Positions 4,648 to 54,116 are shown, counted from the first letter of the stretch. The stretch: 59,779 bases of DNA from a bacterium (GCA_023249225.1 JAHFDA010000010.1:1-59779); one strand, 5' to 3'. Made by a program: numbers and translations. Notes: a model not told the origin generated them from the letters alone.

Positions 4648-5112
4648 ATGAGGCGAAGTAAGTTAAACATCATTGATAACATGGCTTTGGCTCGACTACC
4701 CGACAATGCAAAATCTTTTGTAGAACATACCTACGGGGATTGGATTCGCACACTCCGAATACGCTTGCGTATGACCCAAACCGAGTTGGCACAACGGGCC
4801 AAGGTGACCCAGGCTCAACTGGTGCATATCGAAAGTGGCAAGACGGATCCGCAAGTGAGTACGCTGAAGCGGATTTTTGAGGCGTTATCTTGTCAGTTAG
4901 TCTTGGAACCGAGACCCAAAAAACCGCTCGACGAAATTTTGCGGGGTCGCGCACGCAGCCTGGCGTTAAAGCGTTTAAAAAAAACTGCGGGCACCATGGC
5001 TTTAGAAGGTCAGGCTCCAGATGAGGATGTGTTTCGCCAACTGCTAGAAAAACAGACCGACGAGATTCTGGCTGATCCGCGTGCCAAGCTGTGGGACAAG
5101 ATGGATGAGTGA
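4648..5112 (+). CDS. XRE-family HTH protein, mobile mystery protein A type
   Basis: WIRTLRIRLRMTQTELAQRAKVTQAQLVHIESG HTH, plus a C-terminal TMALEGQA segment typical of mobile mystery A. Confidence 0.85.
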   Translation: MRRSKLNIIDNMALARLPDNAKSFVEHTYGDWIRTLRIRLRMTQTELAQRAKVTQAQLVHIESGKTDPQVSTLKRIFEALSCQLVLEPRPKKPLDEILRGRARSLALKRLKKTAGTMALEGQAPDEDVFRQLLEKQTDEILADPRAKLWDKMDE

Positions 5113-5716
5113 CGATACCCGGTTGGGGGATGCCACGGCTGGAGAAGATGTTTCTGACCTTGTTCTTAGCACTCTTTCAGACCGTCGTGCGCGTAATGCT
5201 GCCGAACTTGAAACGATTACGCGTGCGTACAATAAATATATCTTTCGGGCGAGGCGCAGAAAACCTGGGACAGGGTGGCTGACAGAAGACGTTATCTGTT
5301 GCGTCCATCGCGAAATGTTTGGCGGCATCTGGGCTTGGGCTGGAAAATTCCGCACGGTGGAGGTAAACATTGGTGTAAAGTGGCACACCATTCCGGAACA
5401 AGTACGCTTACTATGTGACGACTTTAAGTATTGGGACTCGCCGGACAGCGCCATGTCGGTTTTTGAAGTTGCCGCCCGGCTGCAAAATCGTTTGACGAGG
5501 ATTCATCCCTTTAAAAACGGCAATGGACGTCATGCCCGATTGATGACCGATATCTTTTTCTATTCCCGCCGACATGCTCTGCCGCAATGGCCGCAGCTAC
5601 AGCTTATGATTCAAGGCGATCAGATTCGCCAAGAGTACATTGCGGCAATGAAAAAGGCAGATGGCGATGATTACAGCGGGTTAATGGCCTTTATCCAACG
5701 GTGTTGCGAAAAATAA
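5105..5716 (+). CDS. Fic-domain protein, mobile mystery protein B type
   Basis: Fic motif HPFKNGNGRHAR and HREMFGGIWAWAGKFR. ATG at 5105 overlaps the end of the XRE gene. Confidence 0.88.
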   Translation: MSDDTRLGDATAGEDVSDLVLSTLSDRRARNAAELETITRAYNKYIFRARRRKPGTGWLTEDVICCVHREMFGGIWAWAGKFRTVEVNIGVKWHTIPEQVRLLCDDFKYWDSPDSAMSVFEVAARLQNRLTRIHPFKNGNGRHARLMTDIFFYSRRHALPQWPQLQLMIQGDQIRQEYIAAMKKADGDDYSGLMAFIQRCCEK

Positions 5717-8863: not shown

Positions 8864-10024
8864 ATGATTGACAGAATTATAAGATTTCCAGAAAAAAGCT
8901 CATTTTTTCTCTTTGGTCCACGTCAGACTGGCAAAAGTACAGTCATACGGGAACGCTTTCAAAAAGACATTTTTTTAATTGATTTGGCGCAGCAGGAAAC
9001 GTTTAGCCATTACGCCAAGGATCCGGCAGTATTTCGCAAGGATATTCTAAAGCAAGCTCAAATGTACGGCGTCACCACTTTTTTTGTGGACGAAGTGCAA
9101 CGTATTCCGGATGTGCTAAACGACGTGCATTCACTGATAGAATCCCATGCCCTGCGTTTTATTTTAACGGGATCATCAGCACGTAAATTAAAGCGGGGTG
9201 GCGCAAATTTGCTGGCGGGCCGGGCGTATCTTCGGCATTTGCATCCCTGCGTTTATGAAGAAATTAAAAACAGTTTCTTTTTGGAAGACGTTTTAAAGTA
9301 TGGTGCCTTGCCCGCCGTCTTGACCCAATCGCCCGAAGAAAAGGTGGAGTTTCTAAAAGTTTATACCCAAACCTATTTGCGCGAGGAAATCAAAGCCGAA
9401 AGCATTGTGCGTCATATTGGCAACTTTACCCGCTTTTTAGATGTGGCTGCAGCGCAGTCCGGCGAGATCCTGTCATTTTCGGAAATTGCCCGTGAATGCC
9501 AGGTAAGCCCCAACACGGCGCAATCCTATTATCAAATACTCGAAGATACGTTGATCGGCTTTATCCTGTGGCCGTACCGTAAAAGTGTCCGCAAACAATT
9601 GTCGGGACAACCCAAATTTTATTTTTTCGACTGTGGCGTGCTTAACAGCATCAATCACCGCCTGCAAGAAGATCCCGACCCGGTTTACCGGGGCCGTCTG
9701 TTTGAGCATTTTATTATTTTGGAAACCCATCGCATGCAAAGTTATTTGCAGAGTGAGACTCAACTGTTTTTTTGGCGCACCCAGCAAAAAAAGGAAGTTG
9801 ACCTCTTGATCGAAAAACATGGACGCCTGTTTGCTGCCATCGAAATTAAATCCGCCACCCACCTGAACCGTCACGACCTGGGGGGTTTGTTGACCTTTAA
9901 GGCCGAACATCCCGATGTGCCCTGTATGTTGGTAGCGACGATCAGCAACCCCACAGAAATACAGGGTATTACTTGTTTGCCTTATGTGGAATATTTTAAG
10001 TGGCTTAAAGAAAATCTGGTCTAA
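8864..10024 (+). CDS. AAA_14 ATPase with C-terminal DUF4143 domain
   Basis: GPRQTGKS, FVDEVQR, LTGSSARKL, PKFYFFDCGV and FWRT..KKEVDLL...AIEIK. Confidence 0.92.
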   Translation: MIDRIIRFPEKSSFFLFGPRQTGKSTVIRERFQKDIFLIDLAQQETFSHYAKDPAVFRKDILKQAQMYGVTTFFVDEVQRIPDVLNDVHSLIESHALRFILTGSSARKLKRGGANLLAGRAYLRHLHPCVYEEIKNSFFLEDVLKYGALPAVLTQSPEEKVEFLKVYTQTYLREEIKAESIVRHIGNFTRFLDVAAAQSGEILSFSEIARECQVSPNTAQSYYQILEDTLIGFILWPYRKSVRKQLSGQPKFYFFDCGVLNSINHRLQEDPDPVYRGRLFEHFIILETHRMQSYLQSETQLFFWRTQQKKEVDLLIEKHGRLFAAIEIKSATHLNRHDLGGLLTFKAEHPDVPCMLVATISNPTEIQGITCLPYVEYFKWLKENLV

Positions 10025-13507: not shown

Positions 13508-13750
13508 ATGAAAACCACTCTTGTGCTTGATGACTTTATCGTCAACCGCGCCCAGCACTACGCCCGGCAGCGCAGCATGACGCTTAGCCAGGTGATCAGC
13601 GAATGGTGTCGTTTGGGCTGGGAGGGCATCCGACAAAAAAACAAGGCCGAGCACAAGCGCAGTTTTAAGCCGCTGAACCTTGGCGGCTCCGCGCGCGTCG
13701 ACCTCAACAACCGCCAACTATGGATGGACCAGTTGGATGATCGGGCTTGA
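13508..13750 (+). CDS. vapB: VapB-type antitoxin (ribbon-helix-helix)
   Basis: MKTTLVLDD...MTLSQVI N-terminus; overlaps the downstream PIN gene. Confidence 0.8.
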   Translation: MKTTLVLDDFIVNRAQHYARQRSMTLSQVISEWCRLGWEGIRQKNKAEHKRSFKPLNLGGSARVDLNNRQLWMDQLDDRA

Positions 13751-14156
13751 TACCAACATCGTCATTTACGGCATGGTGTCGTCGGTACCGCAACATGCCA
13801 AGGCCTTGGCGTGGTTTAACAAAAACCAGGAGGCCTTGGCGCTAACATCGGTTTCGGTGGGCGAGACGCTGCGCTTGCTCACTCATTCCCAGGTATTTCC
13901 CAAGCCGTTGGACCTCACCAAGGCCGTCGCAGCGCTTGCGGCCTTTGTGTCCGACTTTCGCGTGTCTGTGCTCGAGGAAGATCCGGATTGGTGGACGCAG
14001 TTGCCAGACTTGCTTGCGGACTTTCCGGGTCTGCGTGGCAATGCCGTTTACGATGCGCGGATCGCATTGTGTTTTAAATTCCACGGAGTTCGGCAGCTGT
14101 GCACCAACGATGCGGAGTTTAAGAAGTATGGGTTTTTAAAGGTGCTGACGATCTGA
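13737..14156 (+). CDS. vapC: VapC PIN-domain toxin
   Basis: MIGLDTNIVIY, GNAVYDARIA and CTND. ATG 13737 is preferred over the track start at 13680. Confidence 0.9.
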   Translation: MIGLDTNIVIYGMVSSVPQHAKALAWFNKNQEALALTSVSVGETLRLLTHSQVFPKPLDLTKAVAALAAFVSDFRVSVLEEDPDWWTQLPDLLADFPGLRGNAVYDARIALCFKFHGVRQLCTNDAEFKKYGFLKVLTI

Positions 14157-14222: not shown

Positions 14223-14681
14223 ATGACCCGTCTCTCCGACCACTTTTCCGCCGAAGATCTACGTTGCAGTTGCCAGACTTGCGGGGGCAGCCTGCGCATC
14301 AGCCTGGTGCTGGTGGGTATGCTCGAAGAGATTCGGTACTATTACAATCGCCGTGTACATGTGCTGGCTGGTTATCGTTGTGAGGCGCGGCTTAAGGAAC
14401 TTAAGCGTTCGCGCAAAAGCTATCATGGCCTGGGCAAGGCGGTGGATATCCACCTTTCGGGTATTTCCAGCCAGGATCTCTTTGATTTTTGCAGAGGGTT
14501 TAAGGCCATCAAAGGCTTGGGTTATTACCCCGAACAGGATTTTGTGCATATCGACCTGCGTGATCAAAAAGAGCGTTTCGAATTTGTGAACCTGCGTGGC
14601 GAGTACCTGCCATTGACCGGGGATCTGGCCGCAACCTACGGACTCAAAATGGTGGATCATGCCGCCGCAGCCAGCGCCTAA
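14223..14681 (+). CDS. Peptidase M15A (YcbK/D-Ala-D-Ala carboxypeptidase-like) zinc peptidase
   Basis: HFSAEDLRC, AGYRC, SYHGLGKAVDI and FVHIDLR. Confidence 0.9.
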   Translation: MTRLSDHFSAEDLRCSCQTCGGSLRISLVLVGMLEEIRYYYNRRVHVLAGYRCEARLKELKRSRKSYHGLGKAVDIHLSGISSQDLFDFCRGFKAIKGLGYYPEQDFVHIDLRDQKERFEFVNLRGEYLPLTGDLAATYGLKMVDHAAAASA

Positions 14682-15582
14682 CCGTGTTCACGGCATAGAG
14701 GCTTTTGCGCAGTACTTACGCTTGCAAAAACGGGCCTCGCCGCATACGGTGGCGGCGTACAGACGCGACCTGAAACAATGGGTGCTTTACCTTGGGCAGA
14801 CGGGTGTGTCGGATGCCGATGGGGTGCAAGCCGATACCCTGCGACGCTGGCTGCTATGGCTTGAGACTCAAGGACTTTCGCCGCGTAGCGTGCGACGCAA
14901 GTTTTCGGCGCTGCGCAGTTACTACAAATTCCGGCACCAGAAAGATGTGCAGGCCCACGATCCGTTTGTGCGTATCCAGGCTGCCAAAGCCAAACATCAC
15001 TTGCCGACTGTTTTGTCGCTTGCAGAGGTCGAAAAACTGCTGGCTGCGGGTACCGGGCACGCGTCAGAAGACAGTCGCGATACGGCCTTGATTGAATTGC
15101 TTTATGCCGGGGGTCTGCGTATTTCGGAACTGTTGGCGCTGGGCACGGGCGATGTCAGCCAGTTGCAGCACGGAAAACTGCGTGTGCTTGGCAAGGGTCA
15201 AAAACCGCGCGATGTGTTTTTACACGCACGCGCTGTGGCAGCGCTGACACGTTATTTCAATGAAGCCCGGGCACGCTTTTTACAAAAAGCCACGGCTCGC
15301 GCTAAAGAACGCTTGTTTCTGGGACGGCGTGGCACCATGCTTAGTTCCCGCAGCGTGCAGCGGATGATCAAAAAACGGGCCTTGCTGGCCGGAATATTCA
15401 AAGAAGTAACCCCGCATACGCTTAGGCACAGTTTTGCCACCCACCTGCTTTCCGGTGGCGCTGATCTGCGGGCGGTACAGGCCTTGCTTGGGCATGCGCA
15501 TCTTTCCACCACCCAGATTTACACCCAGCTTTCAGATACGCAACTCCGTGCCGATTTTGACCGCTTTCATCCCAGGGCTTAG
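14659..15582 (+). CDS. xerC: Tyrosine recombinase XerC/XerD
   Basis: SPHTVAAYRRDL, LYAGGLRISEL, GKGQK and HTLRHSFATHLL...LLGHAHLSTTQIYT. XerC versus XerD cannot be resolved by eye. Confidence 0.85.
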   Translation: MPPQPAPNRVHGIEAFAQYLRLQKRASPHTVAAYRRDLKQWVLYLGQTGVSDADGVQADTLRRWLLWLETQGLSPRSVRRKFSALRSYYKFRHQKDVQAHDPFVRIQAAKAKHHLPTVLSLAEVEKLLAAGTGHASEDSRDTALIELLYAGGLRISELLALGTGDVSQLQHGKLRVLGKGQKPRDVFLHARAVAALTRYFNEARARFLQKATARAKERLFLGRRGTMLSSRSVQRMIKKRALLAGIFKEVTPHTLRHSFATHLLSGGADLRAVQALLGHAHLSTTQIYTQLSDTQLRADFDRFHPRA

Positions 15583-16891: not shown

Positions 16892-18517
16892 ATGATTACT
16901 TATTTGCGCGTTAAAAATTTTCAGTTGATCGAAGACATCGAGATCGAAGTGTCCGCTGGCCTGACTGTGCTTACCGGCGAGACTGGCGCAGGCAAGAGTA
17001 TGCTGGTTGAGGCACTCATGTTTGCCCTGGGTGGACGGGCCCGCAGTGAATGGGTGGGTGCCTGGGGCGATGAAGCCACCGTGGAGCTGCAGTGGCAATC
17101 GACAAACGACCCAGATCCGCAGGTGCTTGTTCGGCGTTGTCACCGCGATGGCCGCAGCGTGATTAAACTAAGTGATGCATTGGTGACGCTATCGGAACTT
17201 GAAAACCGTTTTCAGGATCTGGCCCTGCGCCAGCGCCAGGGTCAGACGTGGCTGCTTAAAAAGAGCCATTATCCCCGTCAGGTACTCGATGATTATGGGC
17301 GCGAAGATATCCAGCCGATGAAAATCAAATTCAGCGCGGCACACACACAGTGGCAGGCCTGCCAGGCGGCGCGTACGCAGCTCGATACACGCCTGAAGCA
17401 ACTCGAAAAAGATGCTGACTACATCACCCACCAGCATGCAGAACTTTCAAAACTTGAGACCGGAGAAATAGATGAAGACGTTCTGCAGACGCGGCGCCAG
17501 CGACTGGCCAATCAGGTGCGCATTACCGAACGCTTGTCGCAGGCGCTCGAAGCGCTTGACGGCGTAGAAGAACGCTGGCACAACCTGGCCGGAGTGCTCG
17601 ATAAACTGCAGGCCGATTGGAGCGACCCGGCACTCTTTGAAGAAGCCTTGCGTGGCGTTGAAGCCTATGTGCAGGACGTCCGTACCAAATTGGGCACGCT
17701 TCCAGAAGACATGGCTGACCCGCGCGCGCTCGATGAAGTCGAGGAACGGCTGGCCTTGTTGCGACTTTTAAAACGTAAATATGGCGACGACCTGTCACAA
17801 GCCATTGCGCAGGCCCAGCGCGATATGCAGGATCTGCAACAGGGGCGGATGCAACTGGTGGAATTGTCTACCCAGGCCCAAACGTTCGAGCGTGCCATGC
17901 AGGCAGCAGGCGAGCAACTTTCACAGCAACGTTGCGTGTGGGCGCAAAAATTGGCAGGTGCCTGTCAGCAGCAGCTTAAGTTGTTGGGGTTTGCATATCC
18001 GCAGTTTAAAGTTCAGACAGAATTACTGCCTTTGCCCGGCCCCGAAGGTTTTGACGACATTCAATTTTTATTTAGCGCCAACCCCGATGTGGCGCCGCTG
18101 CCCATGGCCCAGGTGGCTTCGGGAGGCGAGTTATCGCGGGTATTACTCGCGCTTTACAGCGTCAGCGCCCACAAGATGGCGGTTCCGGTGCTGATCTTTG
18201 ACGAAATCGACAGCGGCCTGGGCGGCCAGACCGCCAATCAGGTGGGTGCGCTACTGCGACAGCTGGGGTCGCATGGCCAGGTTTTGGCCATTACGCATCT
18301 GGCCCAGGTGGCTGCCACCGCCCATCACCATTGGCACCTTGAAAAACAGATTAAAAATAAACGTAGCTGCCTATTGGTGAAAATCGTGTCTGTAAACGAC
18401 CGTCCCAAGGTTTTGGCTGAACTGATGGGGGATCAGGGCACAGAAGCGGGTCTTGAGCATGCCGAATTGCTGCTTAAAAAGGCCGGAGCCAAACTTAAAC
18501 ATGAGAGAATGAAATAG
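16892..18517 (+). CDS. recN: DNA repair protein RecN
   Basis: TGETGAGKS, ASGGELSR, LIFDEIDSG and ITHLAQVAA. Confidence 0.95.
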   Translation: MITYLRVKNFQLIEDIEIEVSAGLTVLTGETGAGKSMLVEALMFALGGRARSEWVGAWGDEATVELQWQSTNDPDPQVLVRRCHRDGRSVIKLSDALVTLSELENRFQDLALRQRQGQTWLLKKSHYPRQVLDDYGREDIQPMKIKFSAAHTQWQACQAARTQLDTRLKQLEKDADYITHQHAELSKLETGEIDEDVLQTRRQRLANQVRITERLSQALEALDGVEERWHNLAGVLDKLQADWSDPALFEEALRGVEAYVQDVRTKLGTLPEDMADPRALDEVEERLALLRLLKRKYGDDLSQAIAQAQRDMQDLQQGRMQLVELSTQAQTFERAMQAAGEQLSQQRCVWAQKLAGACQQQLKLLGFAYPQFKVQTELLPLPGPEGFDDIQFLFSANPDVAPLPMAQVASGGELSRVLLALYSVSAHKMAVPVLIFDEIDSGLGGQTANQVGALLRQLGSHGQVLAITHLAQVAATAHHHWHLEKQIKNKRSCLLVKIVSVNDRPKVLAELMGDQGTEAGLEHAELLLKKAGAKLKHERMK

Positions 18518-18523
18518 ACAACC

Positions 18524-20359
18524 ATGTGCGGAATTGTTGGATATGTCGGCAATAAAGATGTGCTCTCGGTGCTTCTCGTGGGCCTTGAGCGCCTGTCTTA
18601 CCGAGGTTACGATTCGGCTGGCATTGCCACCCTGGCGCAGGGCGAGCTTTTTGTGCGTAAGGAAGTGGGCAAATTACGCACTTTGGGTGCGGCGCTCGAG
18701 GGCAAGCCGGTGCGCGGCGAGCTTGGTTTAGGCCATACGCGTTGGGCCACGCATGGCGCCCCCTCGCAGGAAAATAGTCACCCGCACACAGACTGTAGCG
18801 GACGTATTGCCATGGTGCATAACGGCATCATCGAAAACTATCACGAGTTGCGTCAACAGCTGATGCGCGAGGGGCATATTTTTAAAAGCGACACCGACAC
18901 CGAAGTCATGGTGCACCTTTTAGAACGTTATCTGACGCCCGAACTTAACTTTCTGGATGCCCTGCGGCGTACGCTTAAAGATGTACGTGGCAGTTATGCG
19001 GTTGCGATCATTTCAGAAATGCTTCCGGGATCCATCTTTGTAGCCCGTCAGGGCAGTCCACTGGTGGTGGGTTTGGGTGCTGATGAAAATTTTGTAGCCT
19101 CCGATGTGGCAGCCATGGTGGGTCATACCCGCGATATCGTGTATATGGAAGACGGCGAGATGGCGGCGATCACCAAACAAGCGGTGGTGTTTTATAACGT
19201 TGCGGGTGAGGAACTCATCAAACAGCCGCAAGTGGTGGAATGGGACACGACCCAAATTGATAAAGGCGATTACGATTACTACATGGCCAAAGAAATTTTT
19301 GAACAACCCACCGTGGCTCGCAGTGTGCTTTCACGCAAACTGGGCCCAGGTGGCCTGATCAATTTAGGAGATCTGGGACACTTTAGCAAAGCCGACCTTT
19401 CAAAAGTCACGCGCATCATCATTCAGGCCTGTGGCACAAGCTGGCATGCGGGGCTGGTGGCTAAATACTGGTTTGAAAAATACACCCGTACCTATACCGA
19501 GGTCGATATCAGTTCGGAGTTCCGTTACCGCTCGGCGATCCTTGATCCCAGCACCTTGGTGATGGCCATTACCCAGTCGGGTGAAACGGCCGATACGCTG
19601 GCGGGCATCCGTGAGGCCAAGAGCAAATTTCTTCCGGTGCTTTCGATCTGTAACGTTGAAAAAAGCAGCATTGCCCGCGAATCAGATGGCGTGATTTTTA
19701 CCGAAGCCGGCCCGGAAATCGGGGTGGCCTCCACCAAGGCTTATACCAGCCAGTTGCTGGCCATTTACCTTTTGACGCTCTATCTGGCGCAGGTCAAATG
19801 GACCCTTTCGCCCGAAGAAGTGCAGACCAAAATCAATGATCTTAAAACCATTCCAGGCAAAATGGAAATTGTGCTGGCGCAAAACGATCAGGTCAAACGG
19901 ATTGCCCAACGCTTTGCGCATTCAAGGGACTATATTTACATTGGTCGCGGTTTCGATTATCCAACGGCTCTCGAGGGCGCCCTTAAAATGAAAGAAATCA
20001 GCTATATCCATGCCACCGGTTACCCGGCCGGAGAACTGAAGCATGGTCCTATTGCGCTCATCGACGAAGAGATGCCTGTGGTTTGCATTGCGACAAAGGG
20101 TTATTGGTATGAAAAAATGCTTTCAAATATTCAAGAGGTCAAGGCGCGCAAAGGCATGATCATCGCGCTTGGCACCGAAGGTGACGACAACCTTGCGCGC
20201 TTGGCAGATGAAGTCATTTGGATTCCGCCGGTGGCCGAAGACTTGGCGCCCTTGCTTACCGCCTTGCCTTTACAACTTTTGGCTTACCACACAGCCATCA
20301 AGCTGGGATGTGATGTGGATCAGCCGCGTAATTTGGCTAAATCCGTTACCGTCGAATAA
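18524..20359 (+). CDS. glmS: Glutamine--fructose-6-phosphate aminotransferase
   Basis: MCGIVG, GHTRWATHG, SQ/TQSGETAD-type motif, and C-terminal DQPRNLAKSVTVE. Confidence 0.99.
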   Translation: MCGIVGYVGNKDVLSVLLVGLERLSYRGYDSAGIATLAQGELFVRKEVGKLRTLGAALEGKPVRGELGLGHTRWATHGAPSQENSHPHTDCSGRIAMVHNGIIENYHELRQQLMREGHIFKSDTDTEVMVHLLERYLTPELNFLDALRRTLKDVRGSYAVAIISEMLPGSIFVARQGSPLVVGLGADENFVASDVAAMVGHTRDIVYMEDGEMAAITKQAVVFYNVAGEELIKQPQVVEWDTTQIDKGDYDYYMAKEIFEQPTVARSVLSRKLGPGGLINLGDLGHFSKADLSKVTRIIIQACGTSWHAGLVAKYWFEKYTRTYTEVDISSEFRYRSAILDPSTLVMAITQSGETADTLAGIREAKSKFLPVLSICNVEKSSIARESDGVIFTEAGPEIGVASTKAYTSQLLAIYLLTLYLAQVKWTLSPEEVQTKINDLKTIPGKMEIVLAQNDQVKRIAQRFAHSRDYIYIGRGFDYPTALEGALKMKEISYIHATGYPAGELKHGPIALIDEEMPVVCIATKGYWYEKMLSNIQEVKARKGMIIALGTEGDDNLARLADEVIWIPPVAEDLAPLLTALPLQLLAYHTAIKLGCDVDQPRNLAKSVTVE

Positions 20360-20449
20360 ATTCAAATTATTTTGTTAGCGAGAAATAGATGTTCTATAAC
20401 ATCCAATCATCGCTTCAATAACAGGTTTCGATATAGCAAAAGAGTGTTG

Positions 20450-21982
20450 ATGCCTGCATTTTTTTTGTGCCGTCAGGTTGCCATTGCCTTGCCAAAGTTA
20501 GATGTCCGGTGGCGTACGCGCGTGCAAAATTTTGAGACGAGCGTCAACGCGCTTGTCCAGCAAATGCAAAACGATCAGCTCGATGGCGCAATTGCCTTAC
20601 ATGCCATTGCGCAAGAATTAGGCAAGCTGGCGGTCAATGCCGATACCATTCGTTTTTTTTGGGTCAAGCGCCCCAAGGGTCATCACATTGCCCTTCCGGT
20701 GGTGCGTTTTACCAATTATGAAAACTCGCGTGAGGTCACCAGGTGCATGAGCAAAATTGGCCGCGAAGTGGCTCGCAATGTCGATGACATTAAAAAGAAA
20801 CTACCTTTCGATGTGCATGTGCTTTTAGATGGCGCAGTGGATGCTCATGATTATGCTTACGTGGCTGCGATTGCGGCGCCCAACCGCCAGTATCTTGATT
20901 TACGGTCGCTTGAAGCACTGGGCAAGGCTGTGCTGGGTGAGGAGGTCATCACCATTACGCCTAAACAGCTTTTGTCATTTTTTGAGGGTGATCATTTTTC
21001 GGATCTCATGCTAGACATGTTTAGCAGTTACTACGGCGAACGCTTTACCCAGGGTGGCGCTCAAATTATTCCGGTCTTTAACGGTTCTGAACCGCTGGGT
21101 TATTTTGAACTGACATCACCCTTTACGGGTTTGCCGGCGGCTCTGCCCAAGGTTGTGGCGCGCAGCGTGGGACATATTCTGCACCAAGCCCTGGTGCCCG
21201 TAAGCGACCGTTTGCTTGATCGGATTCCCACAGATCCAACGCTTGACCGCACCCAGTTTTCGGGCCCGCTGCCGATTGAAGCCATTGATCCTAAACCCCA
21301 GAGTTGGTCTTTTACCAGCGAAAAGTGGACGGTGGTTAAAGCCAACGTCAATCAAATTCCGCCCAGGATTCTTGAGGCCCTGCGTTCCACCGCACGCGAG
21401 GTGCATAGCACCTTTTTTGCGGGATACGACAGCCGTTATGATCAACAATTTGATCCGCAGGCCACTTATATTTTTGTGTTGGCGGGGGAACAGCCAGTAG
21501 CCTGTCTGCGGATTATCCACCGCAAAAACGATGTAGAAGGATGTGTGCCGCTGCCGACCGAGCAAGCCCAGACATTTAAACCTAGTTCACAGGAGACGTT
21601 TCAACGTACCCTGGAGTCTGACCACCCGGCGGAACTGTCTACTTTTTTTATCATCGACCATGATCCAGCGGTAGAAAGAATGTTGCGTTGGGCTTTTCAT
21701 AAATATTTGCGTGAATGTGGCCCCAAAAAACTTTATCTGCTGGTGGATCCCCAGTATCCCTACGTGCTCATGAAGATGGGGTCGAACGTGGAACGCTCCG
21801 AATATGAACAACGTTGTTTTTTTCAAGGGTACTCTCGGCGAAAGCATCCGGGATCTACCTTGATAGAAGAAAATCCGGCCTTATGGGAAGTTCACCGTTA
21901 CAAAATTCCGAGCCGCGCCAATGATGACGGCATGCCTGTCAGGGTAGTCACGCCAGCATTTAAATTGAACGGGTCCAAATGA
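20450..21982 (+). CDS. Hypothetical protein: GAF-like central region plus C-terminal GNAT-fold acyltransferase-like domain (LuxI/FeeM clan)
   Basis: QIIPVFNGSEPLGYFEL resembles a GAF terminal strand. YDQQFDPQATYIFV...VACLRII...AELSTFFI resembles LuxI/FeeM motifs. Start uncertain (20372 TTG or 20450 ATG). Confidence 0.55.
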   Translation: MPAFFLCRQVAIALPKLDVRWRTRVQNFETSVNALVQQMQNDQLDGAIALHAIAQELGKLAVNADTIRFFWVKRPKGHHIALPVVRFTNYENSREVTRCMSKIGREVARNVDDIKKKLPFDVHVLLDGAVDAHDYAYVAAIAAPNRQYLDLRSLEALGKAVLGEEVITITPKQLLSFFEGDHFSDLMLDMFSSYYGERFTQGGAQIIPVFNGSEPLGYFELTSPFTGLPAALPKVVARSVGHILHQALVPVSDRLLDRIPTDPTLDRTQFSGPLPIEAIDPKPQSWSFTSEKWTVVKANVNQIPPRILEALRSTAREVHSTFFAGYDSRYDQQFDPQATYIFVLAGEQPVACLRIIHRKNDVEGCVPLPTEQAQTFKPSSQETFQRTLESDHPAELSTFFIIDHDPAVERMLRWAFHKYLRECGPKKLYLLVDPQYPYVLMKMGSNVERSEYEQRCFFQGYSRRKHPGSTLIEENPALWEVHRYKIPSRANDDGMPVRVVTPAFKLNGSK

Positions 21983-24459
21983 TTGCCAGCGTACTTTTGC
22001 TGGCAGCCGTGTGTACGTATAGCCTGGGCGTGGTGGCGGTGGCCAGGGGACAGCAAGTCGACCGCAGCCGGTCCTTTTTTGTATTTTGCATGTTGGTGGG
22101 CGCATGGCTGACGTGTTATGGCCTTACGTATCTTTTGGCACCCGCTTTTACGGGGGTGCTCACGCGTTGCATTGTGGCGCCAGCCATATTTATTCCACCG
22201 GTATTACTTTATTTTTTACGCACCTTTGAACGCCAGAAACAGTACTTAAGCCCTATAGAAATCTGTGTTTTTGGTTTGGGCGGTTTGGCCGTGCTTGCGT
22301 CGGTTCCAACCTCATGGCACATGCGGCATATCCGTTTTGAATCTGGCGCCATTTTGTTTGAACCCGGACTGATGTATCACCTTCAGGGGCTCTTGCTGCT
22401 TGCGGGCCTGGTGCTGGCTGGACGCACCCTTTGGATGGCTTACCAAAAAGCCCTGCCAGAACAAAAGATTCAAATCAGTCTGGTGTGCGCAGGCATTGGT
22501 GTCAGCGCGTTGGCCGGATTGATTTTTAACTTTGTCTTGCCCGCGCTGGGGTTTGAGCAGTGGAACCGTTTTGGTCCCTTGGCGGTGTTTGCGCTGGTAC
22601 TTACGTCTTACTACGCCATGCTGCGGCATCGTTTTCTTGATGTCAAACACCTGATTCAACGTTCGATGGTGTATGCACTGCTGTATGTGTCGCTGGTTGG
22701 CCTGATGTGGTTTGGAATTTTGGGGGTGGGCACTTATGCCCAGCGTAGGTTTGGCTTGCCTTTGATCACGGTGCTCATTTTTGTGTCTTTTGTGACGGTG
22801 GCTTTGTATGAACCCCTTAAACGTATCTTTCACAAACTGACGCACAGCTTGTTTTTAATTGGCGAACAGACCGAACCAGAATGGGTCAGCCGCTGGATGC
22901 TTGCAACCTCTATGGGTAGCGATCAAAACAATTTACTTAAAGAAGTGTTGGACATACTGGTCAATGACTATGGTATTTCGCGGGTGGGGGTGTATCTTTC
23001 AGAAGATAATGCCGGGCGATTTAGCATGGCTCAATCGGTGGGTGTGTGGCAGCCAGAAACAGAGGCAGTCGAGTCGCTCGGATGGGTGCAGGCCATTAAA
23101 CAAGATCCGCGTATTGTGCTTGGCGAGCTGGAACAGCTTGAAGGCCATGTGCTGCCCGAAGCCCTGACGCAGTTTATGCTGACGCATGGCGTCGAAGCCT
23201 TGGTGCCTTTGCGTTTTCAGGATGCCTGGCAAGGCCTGCTGCTGCTCGGAGAAAAACGGTCGCAGCAAAGGTTTACCCGCGAGGATGGCCACTTGTTAAA
23301 GACCTTGGCCACGCCGCTTTCGGCAGCGTTGGCCAATGCCAAACTCTATAGCAGCGTGTTTAATCTTAAGACGTATTTCGAGTCGGTGCTGGATCGATTG
23401 CCGGTGGGGGTGCTGACCTTTCGTGAAAGCGGACAGGTTTCGTACATTAACAAAAAAGGCGTAGCGTTTTTAGGCGTGATGCCTGGCGCAGACATTCAAC
23501 GTAAGCCGTGGGGCGAAGTTGCCGAACTTTTACCATTTGCGTTTTTACTTGAAGAAGCCTTTCGCGGAGGCCAGATGTATGACTTTATCGAAGTGGAACA
23601 CCATGGGGTGGCCTTTGGCGTGTCGGTGGCGCGCACCATGACGCCGCTAGAGTCTGACGGCCAACAGGGGGTGTTGTTGGTATTGGCAGATCTGACTTCG
23701 TTGCATGAACTGCAATCGCAACTGGCACGCCACGAGCGCCTGGCGGCCCTGGGAGTGATGGCCGCCGGCATTGCGCACGAAATCCGAAACCCAATGGTCA
23801 GCATTAAAACTTTTTCGCAGCTGGTTCCGGTCAAGTTCGAAGATCCGTCTTTCCGTGAAAAATTTGTGCAGGTGGTGTTGCCACAGCTCAACCGCATCGA
23901 AGACCTGGTCACGGCCTTGCTGCATGCCGGACGCCCGCGCAAGCCCAGCCGCGATCTGGTGGACGCCAACGAAATTATCAAGGACGTGCTACTTTTGTGC
24001 GAGGCCGAGCGCCGCGACCACAATTGCAGTTTTTCTTTTGAACCCAGTCGACCGGTGCTTATTTACGCCGATCGCTCGCAGATGACGCAGGTGTTTTTAA
24101 ATCTGGTGCGCAATGCCATTCAGGCCATAGCCAGCAAGGGCCTGTTACAGGTGACGGCTCGTGAAATAGATGAGCGTTGGGCCGAGATCGAGTTTAAAGA
24201 TACGGGCATTGGCATGACCGAAGAACAACTTGAACATCTGTTTGATCCCTTTTATACCACCAAAGATGAAGGCACCGGGCTGGGGTTATCCATCAGCTAT
24301 CGCATTATCGAAGAACATGGTGGACGCATTATCCTTGATAGCACTCCCAAAGTGGGCACGTCTTTCACCTTGCGCATGCCGCGCCGTGCCGATGTCAGCA
24401 CCAAGACGCATTTAAAGATTTTTACCCGCAGTGCCAAGTCTCGGGTGCACGTGTCCTGA
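21979..24459 (+). CDS. Sensor histidine kinase: multi-TM N-terminus (HisKA_7TM-like), GAF, PAS, HisKA, HATPase
   Basis: About 9 hydrophobic segments, GLLLLGEKRSQQRFTRED (GAF), AHEIRNP H-box, NLVRNA, DTGIGM, FDPFYTTK and GTGLGL. Confidence 0.95.
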   Translation: MIASVLLLAAVCTYSLGVVAVARGQQVDRSRSFFVFCMLVGAWLTCYGLTYLLAPAFTGVLTRCIVAPAIFIPPVLLYFLRTFERQKQYLSPIEICVFGLGGLAVLASVPTSWHMRHIRFESGAILFEPGLMYHLQGLLLLAGLVLAGRTLWMAYQKALPEQKIQISLVCAGIGVSALAGLIFNFVLPALGFEQWNRFGPLAVFALVLTSYYAMLRHRFLDVKHLIQRSMVYALLYVSLVGLMWFGILGVGTYAQRRFGLPLITVLIFVSFVTVALYEPLKRIFHKLTHSLFLIGEQTEPEWVSRWMLATSMGSDQNNLLKEVLDILVNDYGISRVGVYLSEDNAGRFSMAQSVGVWQPETEAVESLGWVQAIKQDPRIVLGELEQLEGHVLPEALTQFMLTHGVEALVPLRFQDAWQGLLLLGEKRSQQRFTREDGHLLKTLATPLSAALANAKLYSSVFNLKTYFESVLDRLPVGVLTFRESGQVSYINKKGVAFLGVMPGADIQRKPWGEVAELLPFAFLLEEAFRGGQMYDFIEVEHHGVAFGVSVARTMTPLESDGQQGVLLVLADLTSLHELQSQLARHERLAALGVMAAGIAHEIRNPMVSIKTFSQLVPVKFEDPSFREKFVQVVLPQLNRIEDLVTALLHAGRPRKPSRDLVDANEIIKDVLLLCEAERRDHNCSFSFEPSRPVLIYADRSQMTQVFLNLVRNAIQAIASKGLLQVTAREIDERWAEIEFKDTGIGMTEEQLEHLFDPFYTTKDEGTGLGLSISYRIIEEHGGRIILDSTPKVGTSFTLRMPRRADVSTKTHLKIFTRSAKSRVHVS

Positions 24460-24501
24460 TGATGTTTAATTTTTGGCGCAGATGGGAATACACACCCATG
24501 T

Positions 24502-25020
24502 ATGCGTCGCAGTGGTTTTATGCTTTGTTTGCTATTGGCGGGTTTCTTGTTGTTTCCGGTCAAAGCGCAAGCCTGGTATTTTTGGTTTTTTGACGAGCCG
24601 CTGGCGTATCAGTCTTTTAACCTGACGCTGGTTCCAAAAGATCCCAAAGAAAACGAACTGGATAGTTTTGTCGGACGCCGTATTACATTGGCGCATGCCA
24701 CAAAAGATGCGCCGGTTTATACCTTTGACATTGGGCCCAATACCTTGCTCCGCAAGCGCATGTTCCGTTTTCTGGCGCCACGGGTGATCCAGGGTTCATA
24801 TACGATCAGTGTCACGGGCATGGCCGAGGGTGAAAAACTGGTTCCTGAAAAAGTTGAAATTAATGGTAAAACCAACGATTTATTGATTCAGTATGTTTTT
24901 GCCAAACCCGAAGGGGAAAGCAAAGAATCTAAAGGAGAAAAATCCAAGCCTGCGTCTAAGCAGCAGCGTGAAAGCCAGCAAACCCATGGCGAAGCTCAAA
25001 CCCCGGGAGAACATGGTTAA
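24502..25020 (+). CDS. Secreted hypothetical protein
   Basis: Signal peptide ending AQA; charged low-complexity tail. Confidence 0.7.
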   Translation: MRRSGFMLCLLLAGFLLFPVKAQAWYFWFFDEPLAYQSFNLTLVPKDPKENELDSFVGRRITLAHATKDAPVYTFDIGPNTLLRKRMFRFLAPRVIQGSYTISVTGMAEGEKLVPEKVEINGKTNDLLIQYVFAKPEGESKESKGEKSKPASKQQRESQQTHGEAQTPGEHG

Positions 25021-28942: not shown

Positions 28943-30232
28943 TCACTCTAACAACCACTTCCAAACTGGGAGAATATGGATCCTGACGGAATGGCCTGAT
29001 TTGAGTTTTGCGCTTTCCTCGCCTTGTTCATCGTGGGTCAGAATCCATCCTTCTTTTAAGCGGTAGCACTCCAGGGCCTCCAACAGGCCGCTCAATTCAC
29101 GGTTACGGGTTTCGGCCTGATCCATGTTCTGGGTTACCTGAATGGCCATGCGGATATGCAGGCCATCCTGGATGACAAAGTCGCATTCGCGCGCGCCTTG
29201 ATGGTAAAAGATTTGTTTGCCCCGGCGTTTAAGTTCGAGCAGCACCACATTTTCGAGCATGCGGCCCGGTTCATCTGTAAAACGAAAGCCAATCGTTTGG
29301 GCCAAAGCCAGGTCGATCATATAGGCCTTTTTGGGCGCCAGTATTTGCCGTTTGACTGATTGATCATATTTATTGATGGTAAACGCCAAGTAGGTGCTTT
29401 CAATATAGTCAAAGTAGTCTTTGACCGTGCTGGCGCTGCCCAGGCCCAGGTGCTGCTTCATTTTTGAAAAACTGATTTCTTTACCTATGTTACTGGCAAT
29501 ATAATGCACCAGGCTTTTCATGACCCGTTCGTTGGTTAATTTGTGCCGCGTCATGATGTCGCGATACAAGATAGACTCGTACAACGATTTTAAATATTCG
29601 GGCTGCTTGTTTTTAAGGTATTCCGGAAACCCGCCTTCGTTCAAGTGGTGCCTGAACAGATTCATCAACTTTCCTTTTAGCGTCGTGGTCGGATTGAGCG
29701 CTTTTTCGGGGGATATGCCGTGGGCGTCCACCAGCTCTTTAAATGAAATCGGAAAAAGTTCCACCGGCACATAACGGCCAGTCAGATGGGTCCCCAATTC
29801 GCGGCTAAGCAGATTGGCATTGGATCCGGTGATAAAAACCTGGTCTCCCTGATCTTTCAGGCGTCGGACAAAGCGTTCCCAGCCGGGGACATTTTGGATT
29901 TCGTCAAAATAAAAACATTTTTGTTCCCCAAACTCTTCCACCAAAAGCTCGTACAGCATTTGAAAATGCTCCACGCCAAAGCCGATCAGGCGGTCATCGT
30001 CAAAATTGACGTAATAGTCCTGATGCCGGGCTTTTTTTCGCACAGCGTTTAATAAAGTCGATTTGCCGCAACGCCGCACACCCGACACCACCACCACCTG
30101 GCCGCTCTTCCCGAGCGACTGAACCTTGCCCAGGGCTTGTCTGGGAATCTCCATGGATTGCTGGTCGGCAGATTTTCTTTGATCTCGAATGACTGGCAAC
30201 AGCTGGTTTTTATTCATGACCAATACATCCAT
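28943..30232 (-). CDS. AAA_14 ATPase with DUF4143 domain
   Basis: GVRRCGKS, FDEIQNV, ITGSNANLLS, KKAYMIDLA and ECDFVI...AIQV. Confidence 0.92.
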   Translation of the reverse strand: MDVLVMNKNQLLPVIRDQRKSADQQSMEIPRQALGKVQSLGKSGQVVVVSGVRRCGKSTLLNAVRKKARHQDYYVNFDDDRLIGFGVEHFQMLYELLVEEFGEQKCFYFDEIQNVPGWERFVRRLKDQGDQVFITGSNANLLSRELGTHLTGRYVPVELFPISFKELVDAHGISPEKALNPTTTLKGKLMNLFRHHLNEGGFPEYLKNKQPEYLKSLYESILYRDIMTRHKLTNERVMKSLVHYIASNIGKEISFSKMKQHLGLGSASTVKDYFDYIESTYLAFTINKYDQSVKRQILAPKKAYMIDLALAQTIGFRFTDEPGRMLENVVLLELKRRGKQIFYHQGARECDFVIQDGLHIRMAIQVTQNMDQAETRNRELSGLLEALECYRLKEGWILTHDEQGEESAKLKSGHSVRIHILPVWKWLLE

Positions 30233-38983: not shown

Positions 38984-39526
38984 ATGTCTTTATCTAAGTG
39001 GCTGATGGGCGTAGGGCTTGTGGTCGTGCTGTGTGTGCCGCGTCCGGCATTTGCCGCCCAATATGTTCCCAAGCCAGTGATTGCCGAGGGTCTGGCGCGG
39101 CGGTTGGTGGTGGTGGCATCCAATGTTCCCGAAGCCTTTGACCTTAAAGAGGGCGACCCTAAAGCGCCTTCTTCGGCACCAGAAGCGGGAACAGTATCTT
39201 ATGAACTTGACGATATCGAAGTGGGGCTCTGGTATAACGATGGCCAAAAGAATCAGTATGCCCCGCAGTCGATGGTACGCAAGGGTGCGGGGGTGTGGCT
39301 GTGCAATTATCACCGGTCAGCCTTAGAAATTGGAAAATGGTATGGCAATATTTATAAATTGGACGTGACGCTTTGGTTTCAATCAGGTGATGACACCAAA
39401 CGCATCAGGCGGCGCTATAGTACGGCAGAGGGTGCCGTCTTGCAGTCCTTGCATGTGGACATTTCAAGAATCACGCCCCGAGAAATAAACTTGGATATGT
39501 CCAAAATAGACCCTAAGATGGAATAG
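38984..39526 (+). CDS. Secreted hypothetical protein, paralog A
   Basis: Signal peptide; shares YELD..GxWYNDG.KN and GKWxGNIYK with the next ORF. Confidence 0.75.
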   Translation: MSLSKWLMGVGLVVVLCVPRPAFAAQYVPKPVIAEGLARRLVVVASNVPEAFDLKEGDPKAPSSAPEAGTVSYELDDIEVGLWYNDGQKNQYAPQSMVRKGAGVWLCNYHRSALEIGKWYGNIYKLDVTLWFQSGDDTKRIRRRYSTAEGAVLQSLHVDISRITPREINLDMSKIDPKME

Positions 39527-39534
39527 AAAAGGAG

Positions 39535-40098
39535 ATGAAAATGAAGGTGATGGGTGGTCTGCTGGCAGGTCTTTTGCTTTTGGCATCGCCGTTGTATGCC
39601 GAGCAATTTCTTAAAGTGCCTATTTTTAAAGATGGCCAGTCGCGGGCGATTGCCGTCCATCTTGAAAGTGTGCCCGAAAGCTTTGAGCAAGAAACGGTAG
39701 ACTATATCGAAAGCCCCGGCAGCAGCGAAAACCTCACCACGCGTTCAGAAATAAAAATAAAAACAGCTTATGAACTTGACCAGGCCACCTTTGGCATGTG
39801 GTACAACGATGGTGATAAAAACAAGTTTATCGATGTACCTATGTACCGGCGCGCCAAAGGCCAATGGGTTTCTAATTTTCACCGGTCTTTGTTTTTTCCA
39901 TCCGGAAAATGGTTTGGCAATATTTACAAGGTGCAGGTGCAACTCGAGTATCAAAACCAGGATAACACCAAATCGTTGGTACGCATTTACAGCACAAAGT
40001 CCGGAGACCTGCTGTATTCACTGCGGGCAGCCACCATTTCTATGAGTCCTGCTGAATTGCTGCTTAATTTGCAAGGAGTCGACCCGTTGCAGAATTGA
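39535..40098 (+). CDS. Secreted hypothetical protein, paralog B
   Basis: AGGAG RBS, signal peptide, and colinear similarity to 38984..39526. Confidence 0.75.
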   Translation: MKMKVMGGLLAGLLLLASPLYAEQFLKVPIFKDGQSRAIAVHLESVPESFEQETVDYIESPGSSENLTTRSEIKIKTAYELDQATFGMWYNDGDKNKFIDVPMYRRAKGQWVSNFHRSLFFPSGKWFGNIYKVQVQLEYQNQDNTKSLVRIYSTKSGDLLYSLRAATISMSPAELLLNLQGVDPLQN

Positions 40099-41240
40099 AA
40101 TCCACACTAAGGAATTTCGCACTTTTTTTAGTTACTCTGCTTTTGACAGGGCTTGGTTTGGGAACGACCGAGTGGCTGGCTCGAAAGTGGCTGCTTAAAC
40201 ATGTAGGCGGCGACCACGAAGCCTATACCCGGAAGCATTTTGCCTGGTCCGGACAGGTGGGATATTACTACGGTCAAAATATAAAACTGAACGACCCGTT
40301 GGGGTTTCATGTGATTGCCGGTCCACCTTTTAACGTGGTGCGTAAGCATAATCGAGAATTTAGAATATTGATGCTGGGGGGGTCGGCTGTAGAGGGTTTT
40401 GACACCGGTCCCGAATTAAATTTACCTTCGGAACTCAATCGCCTGCTACAGCAGTTTAATCCCGATCTTGAATTTCATACGCTCAATGGGGGCGTAAGCG
40501 GTCACCTTTCGTTTACAGAAAATGTCCAGCATTGGTCTTTTCGTAATTACGATTTTGATCTGGTACTGGTCTATACCGGCTACAACGACATGTACTATTT
40601 TTTTATGGATCCCGACTATTATGCGCGTTCAGAGGAATATTGCCATCGTCGTTTTTCTGTTTTAAATCAGGTATCAGAACATCTGGCCGAAAAATCACTG
40701 GTTTTTGCCTGGCTGCGTCATAAGCGTGTGGCTGCTCGGCTGCTCTACGAGATGGTGTCTCAAAGGCGTACCACTGGCTGGGAGGCGCTCGACGCATCGA
40801 GTATCACCTTGTTTAAGGAAAATCTCTCGGAACAGGTGAGGCAAATCATTGAGCGTAGCCAGGCCAGGTCGATTCCGATCATATATCTGATGCAACCTTA
40901 TTTGACCGACCTGCAGCGGAGCCGACTCCTAACGCATTTTGAGATGGAGAAAAAGAGTGTGTATTTAAAGGATAAGAACGCCCAGTGGGAGGCGGTGGTA
41001 GACAGCGTTATGCCGGCGATGGTTGAAACCGTCAGCGGTCTGTGTCAGCAACAGGGTGTACCTTTCATATATTTTAAGGATGTCATCAGTAAGTACACGG
41101 ATATGTTTTATGACGATGTGCACCTGCACGGCACCGGCATGTCGCTTGCAGCCCTAGAGTTGGCTAAAATTGTGCAGCAAAAGGTACTTAAACGCAGTAT
41201 CGAGGGTTGGCCGATATATGGGCGTACATCGGCGTTATAA
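40095..41240 (+). CDS. Membrane-anchored SGNH/GDSL hydrolase-family protein
   Basis: N-terminal TM, ILMLGGSA (block I), NGGVSG (II), YTGYND (III) and DDVHL (V). Confidence 0.85.
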   Translation: MKSTLRNFALFLVTLLLTGLGLGTTEWLARKWLLKHVGGDHEAYTRKHFAWSGQVGYYYGQNIKLNDPLGFHVIAGPPFNVVRKHNREFRILMLGGSAVEGFDTGPELNLPSELNRLLQQFNPDLEFHTLNGGVSGHLSFTENVQHWSFRNYDFDLVLVYTGYNDMYYFFMDPDYYARSEEYCHRRFSVLNQVSEHLAEKSLVFAWLRHKRVAARLLYEMVSQRRTTGWEALDASSITLFKENLSEQVRQIIERSQARSIPIIYLMQPYLTDLQRSRLLTHFEMEKKSVYLKDKNAQWEAVVDSVMPAMVETVSGLCQQQGVPFIYFKDVISKYTDMFYDDVHLHGTGMSLAALELAKIVQQKVLKRSIEGWPIYGRTSAL

Positions 41241-41443
41241 CAGGTTTTGCCACAGCCACACTCGCTCCAGTTTTATTTTTGTCACTCAAAATAGCGAGGG
41301 TTTTTTTACATCCATTTGATGCATGGCGCGCAATGCGTGGCCGACAGCATCATGCCCGGCCTTGAAATCCACCTGCGTTCGCGCTTGTATCACGGCAGGT
41401 TTCCAAGCGTTTAAAAATTTTACATACTGGGAAGTTTGCATGT

Positions 41444-52718: not shown

Positions 52719-52724
52719 ACAACG

Positions 52725-53915: not shown

Positions 53916-54022
53916 TTTTACTTTGAATCTCTAACCCGGATTATTCACTCATATGAAGCGGACACCTACACACGGGAGCCCGCTGCAAGAAGATATGAAT
54001 AGTGCGGGCTAATGGGTTCATT

Positions 54023-54043
54023 CCCCGTGGGCTTGCCCCGGGG
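54023..54043. repeat. GC-rich hairpin CCCCGTGGGCTTGCCCCGGGG resembling IS200/IS605-end or REP hairpins
   Basis: CCCCG/CGGGG plus GGGC/GCCC stems, lying between convergent genes. Confidence 0.55.
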
Positions 54044-54116
54044 TTCTTTTACTTCTGAATAACCAATTCCATTTTTTGAAACACTGTTATCTTCCATAGA
54101 CTTGCAAAACCGGGAT

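Follow-up and report, generated by a model that had tools for sequence, protein, structure and literature searches.

A FeeM/LuxI-clan acyltransferase gene overlapping a HisKA_7TM histidine kinase gene: a possible make-and-sense signalling circuit in uncultured groundwater bacteria

We analyzed a pair of overlapping genes at positions 20450–24459 of a 59,779-nucleotide stretch of bacterial DNA (GCA_023249225.1 JAHFDA010000010.1:1-59779; this whole stretch is called the window), for which an original prediction, made from the sequence alone, had proposed a sensor-gated synthase of an acylated signal co-translated with its receptor. The upstream gene, open reading frame A (ORF-A; protein P0001; 20450–21982, plus strand), encodes a cytoplasmic two-domain protein of 510 amino acids without predicted transmembrane segments, and the downstream gene (21979–24459, plus strand) encodes P0002, a sensor histidine kinase of 826 amino acids with the domain order HisKA_7TM-GAF-PAS-HisKA-HATPase. 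Together, the two may constitute an undescribed make-and-sense signalling circuit. A TTG at 20372 opens a longer frame for ORF-A; the start is, judged by sequence, the ATG at 20450, because from there ORF-A matches the N-terminus of its only homolog, P0003, position by position. The TGA of ORF-A (21980–21982) and the ATG of the kinase gene (21979–21981) overlap as ATGA (21979–21982, plus strand): The junction DNA, which reads ...TCCAAATGATTGCC..., agrees with the predicted overlap, by which the two genes would be translationally coupled.

ORF-A is a rare protein. It has no Pfam match, and a word-indexed search of 5.8 billion clusters returned the query itself only. An exhaustive HMMER search of 1.84 billion representatives found one true relative, P0003 (511 amino acids, E 4e-83), which is 37% identical to ORF-A along its whole length; the third row of that search, P0004, is a spurious match to a tandem-repeat protein of 1056 amino acids that aligned in nine short stretches. 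The description of ORF-A as an orphan thus holds for Pfam and the clustered sequences and gives way at P0003. The closest genomes in the search for relatives belong to the same class, and 40 genomes of this class yielded no convincing match to the single ORF-A protein, only a short frame with five stops (E 0.004). Sequence searches of the PDB with P0001 and with the two-sequence C-terminal profile A2 gave chance-level matches only; a word-based search with A2 scored none of 1539 candidates, and one with profile A4 gave three matches only, the protein of genome G095 itself among them. The motifs quoted in the original prediction are all found in the translation: YDQQFDPQATYIFV at residues 330–343, VACLRII at 350–356, AELSTFFI at 394–401, and QIIPVFNGSEPLGYFEL at 205–221. 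Between P0001 and P0003, D335, R354, E395, S397 and the stretches 'GGAQ-IP' and 'GY-EL' are invariant, and because this invariance occurs at only 37% overall identity, the quoted motifs are not chance strings.

From sequence comparison and structure modelling, the C-terminal ~225 amino acids of ORF-A (residues 285–510; 21302–21979, plus strand) are predicted to be a GNAT domain of the FeeM/LuxI clan, whose members move a fatty acyl group from acyl-acyl carrier protein or acyl-coenzyme A onto an amine. The NCBIfam model NF047533 ('LBL_2463 family') matched P0001 and P0003 independently with E-values of 1e-4 to 1.6e-5 (22–25 bits, cut-off 110), the match to the C-terminal domain of P0001 scoring 24.7 bits at E 1.6e-5; the model of exosortase-associated acyltransferases, TIGR03694, reached E 0.008 on the same C-terminus (15.6 bits versus a cut-off of 111.95). 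When the two-protein profile A1 (P0001 and P0003) was searched against 146 genomes of the phylum, it gave two weak C-terminal matches, of which the one in genome G111 (E 9.6e-4) is a protein of 315 amino acids that passes the Pfam family FeeM (PF21926) with 32 bits versus a cut-off of 27. Altogether, PF21926 is passed by relatives in G111 (32 bits), G091 (44.5 bits) and G095 (41.3 bits), which are linked to P0001 by profile. A5, a nine-sequence alignment of the ORF-A C-terminal domain and its relatives, matched as a profile the acyl-homoserine lactone synthase BjaI with E 1.5e-4, thereby aligning the columns of the D, R and E motifs, and LasI with E 0.78. The conserved residues in question are D335 (21452–21454, plus strand), R354 (21509–21511) and E395 (21632–21634): We take E395 to be the acidic catalytic residue on the central strand, its column holding Glu in eight of the nine rows of A5 and Asp in the ninth, and the columns of D335 and R354 are presumably those shared with LuxI enzymes.

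Structure comparison points the same way. An AlphaFold2 (AF2) model of residues 285–510, built with nine sequences, has a mean predicted local distance difference test score (pLDDT) of 55.5 and is moderate to good over its residues 1–145; a model of full-length P0001 built without an alignment was unusable (pLDDT 34.7). Searched with Foldseek, the AF2 model gave ten matches at E ≤ 0.001, and all among the matches listed have the GNAT fold; FeeM (2g0b) stood at rank 3 with 20% identity, the highest among the first ten rows. In the VIA comparison, FeeM (2g0b_C) was the top match (Z 10.7, root-mean-square deviation 3.1, 155 residues aligned), and BjaI and LasI each reached Z 10.4. The ESM-Atlas placed the domain among clusters of FeeM, Acetyltransf_5 and Autoind_synth by its features (0.93–0.95), and by structure it gave TM-scores of 0.62–0.71 to FeeM, Autoind_synth and unnamed Spirochaetota GNAT clusters, the Autoind_synth row standing at 0.63. 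NF047533, the BjaI profile match, AF2 with Foldseek, VIA and the ESM-Atlas therefore agree with the predicted LuxI/FeeM-like GNAT fold of the C-terminal half. By sequence, the domain is too divergent for membership of Pfam FeeM or Autoind_synth.

For the N-terminal domain (residues ~15–257; 20492–21220, plus strand), the original prediction had proposed a GAF-like fold, and here the evidence yields a lead only. The ESM-Atlas listed GAF clusters at 0.88 with TM-scores of 0.47–0.52, which lie under the bar of the tool, and the order of strands and helices in the poor single-sequence AF2 model (pLDDT 34.7) is compatible with GAF. Pfam and NCBIfam gave no match to this domain at E ≤ 10, and when A1 was compared by hhalign with the GAF domains of four kinases, the match was non-significant (probability 0.2%, E 0.32) and confined to the 'QIIPVF...GYFEL' hairpin. 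Between P0001 and P0003, the motifs DTIRFF, APNRQYLD and GGAQ-IP are kept. In the relatives from G111, G001 and G009, the N-terminal extension is shorter and does not align with this domain; for this reason, the 284-residue N-terminal domain is considered special to P0001 and P0003, the only proteins in which a GAF-like N-terminal fusion to a FeeM-clan domain was seen.

The kinase P0002 begins with a membrane sensor, HisKA_7TM (PF16927; 21994–22644, plus strand), which was recognized by a six-frame family search with 44.1 bits versus a cut-off of 28.6. It is followed by GAF_2 (residues 315–451; 22921–23331; 29.2 bits versus a Pfam cut-off of 28.6), PAS_4 (residues 471–576; 23389–23706; 25.1 bits versus 23.1) and a core of HisKA (592–652) and HATPase_c (698–803) at 23752–24387 with Pfam scores of 35.3 and 93.6 bits, respectively, all on the plus strand. 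The closest NCBIfam models of the core are of the AtoS and ZraS types. Approximately nine hydrophobic segments lie within residues 1–276. A plain hmmscan of the P0002 protein did not list PF16927 even at E ≤ 10: The HMMER filters probably dropped the hydrophobic match, and 7TM (seven-transmembrane) kinases may be under-called by this procedure. The assignment is supported by BLASTP to the 7TM kinases of G111 and G091, relatives that pass PF16927, with E 2e-42 for the whole protein and 2e-16 for residues 5–285. The Pfam domains, PF16927 and the hydrophobic segments thus bear out the predicted multi-transmembrane GAF-PAS histidine kinase. The likeness to LuxN that had been drawn stands as an analogy between multi-transmembrane kinases and does not extend to the sensor, which is HisKA_7TM, or to a receiver, because Pfam found no Response_reg domain in P0002. 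The genome contains only one other HisKA_7TM kinase (contig 100, 666 amino acids). Its gene and that of an NtrC-type sigma-54 activator, which comes next in an overlapping frame, occupy L040:4339-7882, with no acyltransferase gene preceding them; the kinase falls inside the same 11-row split of the kinase tree as the enzyme-linked kinases described below.

The pairing is kept among relatives. Searching the 146 genomes with the A5 profile (E ≤ 0.001) revealed eight FeeM-like loci in seven genomes; six of these loci had contributed to A5, and the new ones lie on contig 86 of G001 and contig 26 of G091. At seven of the eight, the next gene on the same strand encodes a HisKA_7TM kinase. The junction is ATGA in the source genome (G000, its kinase recognized by the six-frame PF16927 search), on contig 5 of G091 and in G095, TAATG in G001, TAAATG on contig 26 of G091 and a 36-nucleotide gap in G111. 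In G009 (contig 146, L005:187-778), an apparent frameshift in a T run interrupts the enzyme gene, and the other frame runs to the kinase start; the early stop after '...VELSTFLANDIFF' reflects a genuine interruption of the gene or else a mistake in the assembly. The exception is G008, which has a fusion of FeeM and cNMP_binding and no adjacent kinase. PF16927 has 517 matches in 112 of the 146 genomes, and since this corresponds to ~3.5 per genome, adjacency by chance is estimated at well <1% per gene. The C-terminal half has a GNAT fold and homologs of the two genes are neighbours at most loci, so that both outcomes held to speak against the original prediction, a different fold and genes that are never neighbours, failed to appear.

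Moreover, the enzyme-linked kinases cluster. In a tree of 30 7TM domains (from seven enzyme-linked kinases, three nearby ones and 20 others from the top of the ~500-row PF16927 list), all seven enzyme-linked kinases fall within one well-supported split (96/97) of 11 rows; the linkage label requires two changes versus a mean of 6.5 after shuffling, and none of 500 shuffles was as low. P0002 groups with the kinases of G009 and G001 on a long branch. The enzyme tree places G000, G111, G001 and G009 together and both copies of G091 with G095, and is roughly congruent with the kinase tree, G091 contig 26 excepted. Because the gene order is kept, the linked kinases cluster and the trees are roughly congruent, the pair looks, from these comparisons, as if it were inherited as a unit within the phylum.

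The surroundings of the relatives provide further hints. Directly upstream of the FeeM-like gene, a methyltransferase gene is found at L014:6655-7551 (G091), L015:6175-6975 (G095) and L019:3340-3960 (G091 contig 26), which is of the class I S-adenosylmethionine type at two loci and of the ICMT/PEMT membrane type at the third, and in G091 (two loci) and G095 it is adjoined by fabF-like (ketoacyl-synthase), fabG-type and fabK-type genes. The gene content suggests that the product at the G091 and G095 loci may be a methylated acyl amide. Within the window, no methyltransferase or fab-like gene lies beside ORF-A. Receiver-only genes adjoin the kinases of G111, G001 and G091 contig 26. Fusions of FeeM with cNMP_binding, both in and beyond the phylum, are represented by the G008 protein (401 amino acids, L016:4526-5728) and by P0007 (374 amino acids); since such sensor-fused FeeM enzymes exist, a gated synthase is plausible. 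In the cytoplasmic linker of the G001 kinase (L018:5984-8044, residues 331–428), PF03472 scored 16.5 bits versus a cut-off of 23, which is probably noise from a GAF/PAS-like fold. Several weak profile matches were discarded: a 491-residue frame on contig 94 of G001 that reads as amidase-like, short matches with stops in G130 and G037, and a 146-residue frame on contig 75 of G083, RimI-like from its sequence, which at 23.6 bits lies below the FeeM cut-off and outside the eight loci.

Upstream of ORF-A, recN (16892–18517) and glmS (18524–20359) lie on the plus strand. Downstream, 42 nucleotides past the kinase stop, a small frame of 172 amino acids (24502–25020, plus strand) with one N-terminal hydrophobic segment and no Pfam match may be co-transcribed with the pair; a promoter and terminator scan, which yielded fewer sites than in shuffled sequence, placed no terminator-like site in the interval 24459–24502. 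A counterpart of this frame was not seen in the related loci. Past it follow an EamA transporter gene on the opposite strand and a radical-SAM gene. The stretch was found in a groundwater metagenome, and the metatranscriptome made from that sample contained only one short contig piece, with a likeness of <90%. Another groundwater sample from this study contained short contigs ~90–93% identical to parts of ORF-A and the kinase gene (21326–23142), so that the pair is probably also present in a related strain or species. Elsewhere in the window, four consecutive plus-strand frames without Pfam match (38984–46315) encode 180, 187, 381 and 1623 amino acids, the last at 41444–46315. Three genes for AAA_14 + DUF4143 ATPases (8864–10024 and 28943–30232 of the window, and L040:2107-3405 on contig 100) include one near each of the two HisKA_7TM kinases of the genome, possibly by coincidence. 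Genes of mobile, defence and toxin-antitoxin types (ORF6N, HTH + Fic/DOC, PIN, AbiEi/AbiEii and a second Fic) are scattered over 491–994, 4648–5716, 13680–14156 and 51912–55166, and a tyrosine recombinase gene lies at 14659–15582.

We compared the locus with known systems that join related parts. It shares with FeeM (PF21926, 2g0b) the GNAT fold, with FeeM as the top VIA match, the conserved D, R and E columns and relatives that pass PF21926, whereas P0001 and P0003 themselves stay below the Pfam thresholds, possess the extra N-terminal domain of 284 residues and have a 7TM kinase as partner. Our literature search found no report that pairs a HisKA_7TM kinase with a FeeM-type enzyme. LuxI-type enzymes (BjaI 5W8A/5W8C, LasI 1RO5; PF00765) belong to the same clan and have the equal VIA scores given above; the partner in the present locus, however, is a kinase, and the Arg of the LuxI-type E-x-S-R motif is a Thr in ORF-A. 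Pfam found no PF00765 in ORF-A, and a search of the genome found none either, although this search was weak, as the control genomes gave none; PF03472, the LuxR-type autoinducer-binding domain, is absent from the 97%-complete genome according to a search in which the E. coli control was positive. Because PF00765 gave no match and the genome has no LuxR ligand domain, the locus is not a LuxI/LuxR circuit.

PEP-CTERM/exosortase-associated N-acyl amino acid synthases (TIGR03694, NasY) reportedly occur with the kinase PrsK, as is said to have been described by Craig et al. in 2011. Both that system and the present locus link an N-acyl amino acid synthase family to a multi-transmembrane GAF kinase, and the P0002 core matches the PrsK model TIGR02916 with E 1.1e-40 (139.9 bits versus a cut-off of 300). 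A search for exosortase (PF09721) at E ≤ 0.01, in which one control was positive, gave no match in this genome, which is 97% complete. Since TIGR03694 and TIGR02916 both score far below their cut-offs and exosortase was not found, the locus is not a PEP-CTERM system. The fusions of FeeM with cNMP_binding (G008, P0007 and an ESM-Atlas cluster of 60 members) likewise join a FeeM-clan acyltransferase to a small-molecule-binding domain; in contrast to ORF-A, whose GAF-like domain is N-terminal and which is followed by a kinase, they carry a C-terminal cyclic-nucleotide domain, and the G008 gene has no kinase.

In LuxM/LuxN, AinS/AinR and CqsA/CqsS (LqsA/LqsS), the gene of an autoinducer synthase adjoins that of a polytopic membrane histidine-kinase receptor. 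The present locus would resemble these systems in that a synthase of a lipophilic signal, a role read here from the genes, lies beside a multi-transmembrane kinase without a periplasmic domain, with the regulator located elsewhere. It differs in its FeeM/LuxI-clan enzyme, its HisKA_7TM sensor, its non-hybrid kinase and a synthase with its own sensor-like domain. The circuit logic would accordingly be that of LuxM/LuxN or CqsA/CqsS quorum sensing, built from unrelated parts. Beyond kinase-linked systems, mycobacterial N-acyl amino acid synthases TyzA and TrzA feed oxazolone lipids (PMC10404671, PMC12856293) and Bacteroidota make N-acyl-cyclolysine signals (PMC13419125). In the portions of these papers available to us, FeeM-type N-acylation is the first step toward specialised lipids or signals, the clusters add nitroreductase or ThiF-type enzymes, neither of which lies beside ORF-A, and no kinase receptor is reported for either kind of cluster.

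Tentatively, and with slightly more doubt than belief, we propose that ORF-A is a sensor-gated cytoplasmic N-acyl-amide synthase and that the 7TM kinase senses the lipid it makes, a reading in which we infer the chemistry, the ligand and the regulator. The mechanism would be as follows: The ORF-A enzyme would transfer a fatty acyl chain to the nitrogen of a small amine, its GAF-like N-terminal domain gating synthesis on an intracellular ligand. The lipophilic product would enter or cross the membrane, where the 7TM bundle of the kinase would detect it. The signal would then be relayed by the GAF and PAS domains of P0002, leading first to autophosphorylation and next to a response regulator whose gene lies elsewhere. 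An NtrC-type sigma-54 activator is a candidate for this regulator, given the AtoS/ZraS-like core of the kinase. The proposal of signal synthesis, with the kinase as the receptor, follows the linkage of the two genes. Genome-wide, 28 receiver matches were counted, the only one on this contig at 15–296.

Several results weigh against this proposal. No receiver domain was found by family scan in the genes flanking the pair, as the original prediction had already noted for the adjacent genes. PF21926 gave no match at E ≤ 10 to P0001, to its C-terminal part or to P0003, and none in six frames; both proteins fall below the Pfam thresholds for FeeM, Autoind_synth and Acetyltransf_5, and the NF047533 scores are a fraction of the cut-off. 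Residues 146–226 of the AF2 model have a pLDDT < 50, so that the C-terminal ~80 residues are unreliable. In the VIA comparison, GCN5, NatD, AAC(2'), BjaI and LasI are tied with FeeM at Z 10.3–10.7; because FeeM is thus tied with ordinary acetyltransferases, the fold alone does not indicate a long acyl chain. The LuxI-type Arg is replaced in ORF-A (ELSTF), and the GAF assignment, on which the gate depends, is an unproven lead. The test for clustering of the linked kinases was made on a biased sample, because the 20 other kinases were hand-picked from the top of the list, and scans of genome and metagenome contigs yielded no confirmed locus for the DNA encoding P0003. Finally, the operon linkage fits equally well with a kinase that regulates the enzyme or senses something else.

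In one alternative, the pair would serve to remodel membrane lipids, regulator and output being joined in one unit: The enzyme would make a structural aminolipid, and the kinase, responding not to this product but to the state of the membrane or envelope or to some external signal, would govern the operon via a regulator. We regard this as unlikely. OlsB-type members of the same clan act in ornithine lipid synthesis, the data on enzyme-kinase linkage apply equally to it, and the fab genes and lipid-type methyltransferases of G091 and G095 fit a bulk lipid as well as a signal. HisKA_7TM has no known ligand, the literature found under this term consisting, in its accessible parts, of archaeal and eukaryotic kinase censuses or reviews. 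However, a second acyltransferase of the OlsA type, which structural aminolipid synthases normally need, is not found beside ORF-A, the enzyme is patchily distributed over seven of 146 genomes, more like accessory signalling than core lipid synthesis, and gating of the enzyme by a GAF-like or cNMP-binding domain would be more fitting for a signal than for a lipid made in bulk. It is quite improbable that the GNAT domain instead acylates a protein, be it the kinase, its regulator or another target, as an N-terminally gated post-translational modifier: Its fold scores are tied with those of the protein acetyltransferases GCN5 and NatD (Z 10.1–10.5), and tight translational coupling is common among proteins that act on each other, yet all sequence links (NF047533, TIGR03694, PF21926 in relatives and BjaI) lead to the small-molecule clan of FeeM and LuxI and none to protein acetyltransferases, and the ESM-Atlas neighbours carry FeeM, Acetyltransf_5 or Autoind_synth. 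That ORF-A has lost catalysis and only binds an acyl ligand or acyl carrier protein, serving the kinase as a cytoplasmic accessory sensor, we consider very improbable. ORF-A is extremely divergent, without a Pfam match, occupies the longest branch of the enzyme tree (1.91) with a composition unlike that of its relatives, has lost the Arg of E-x-S-R and is poorly modelled in its C-terminal half; against inactivity, P0001 and P0003 share D335, R354, E395 and S397 although they are only 37% identical, the Glu column of A5 is Glu in eight of nine rows and Asp in the ninth, and the Pfam FeeM threshold is passed by relatives whose genes are arranged in this way.

To return to the make-and-sense circuit, we extend the proposal to a broader and more doubtful one, namely that the N-acyl amide lipids made by the FeeM-like enzyme encoded immediately upstream have their receptors in the HisKA_7TM kinases of this clade. 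Enzyme and kinase would form a self-contained quorum-type circuit, spread among uncultured bacteria with small genomes, unrelated to LuxI/LuxR, to which the GAF-like gate of the present enzyme would add a second, intracellular input. To our knowledge, the native role and the receptors of the long-chain N-acyl amino acids and amides made by many bacteria are largely unknown, and we know of no ligand for the widespread HisKA_7TM sensor domain. The coupled, conserved pair bears on both. If the proposal is true, bacterial N-acyl amino acids would gain a first receptor and HisKA_7TM a first class of ligands, and the GAF-like fusion, of which two proteins are known, would be an example of an allosterically gated signal synthase. 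As the bacteria of this phylum have small genomes yet many 7TM kinases, the answer bears on how uncultured groundwater bacteria communicate.

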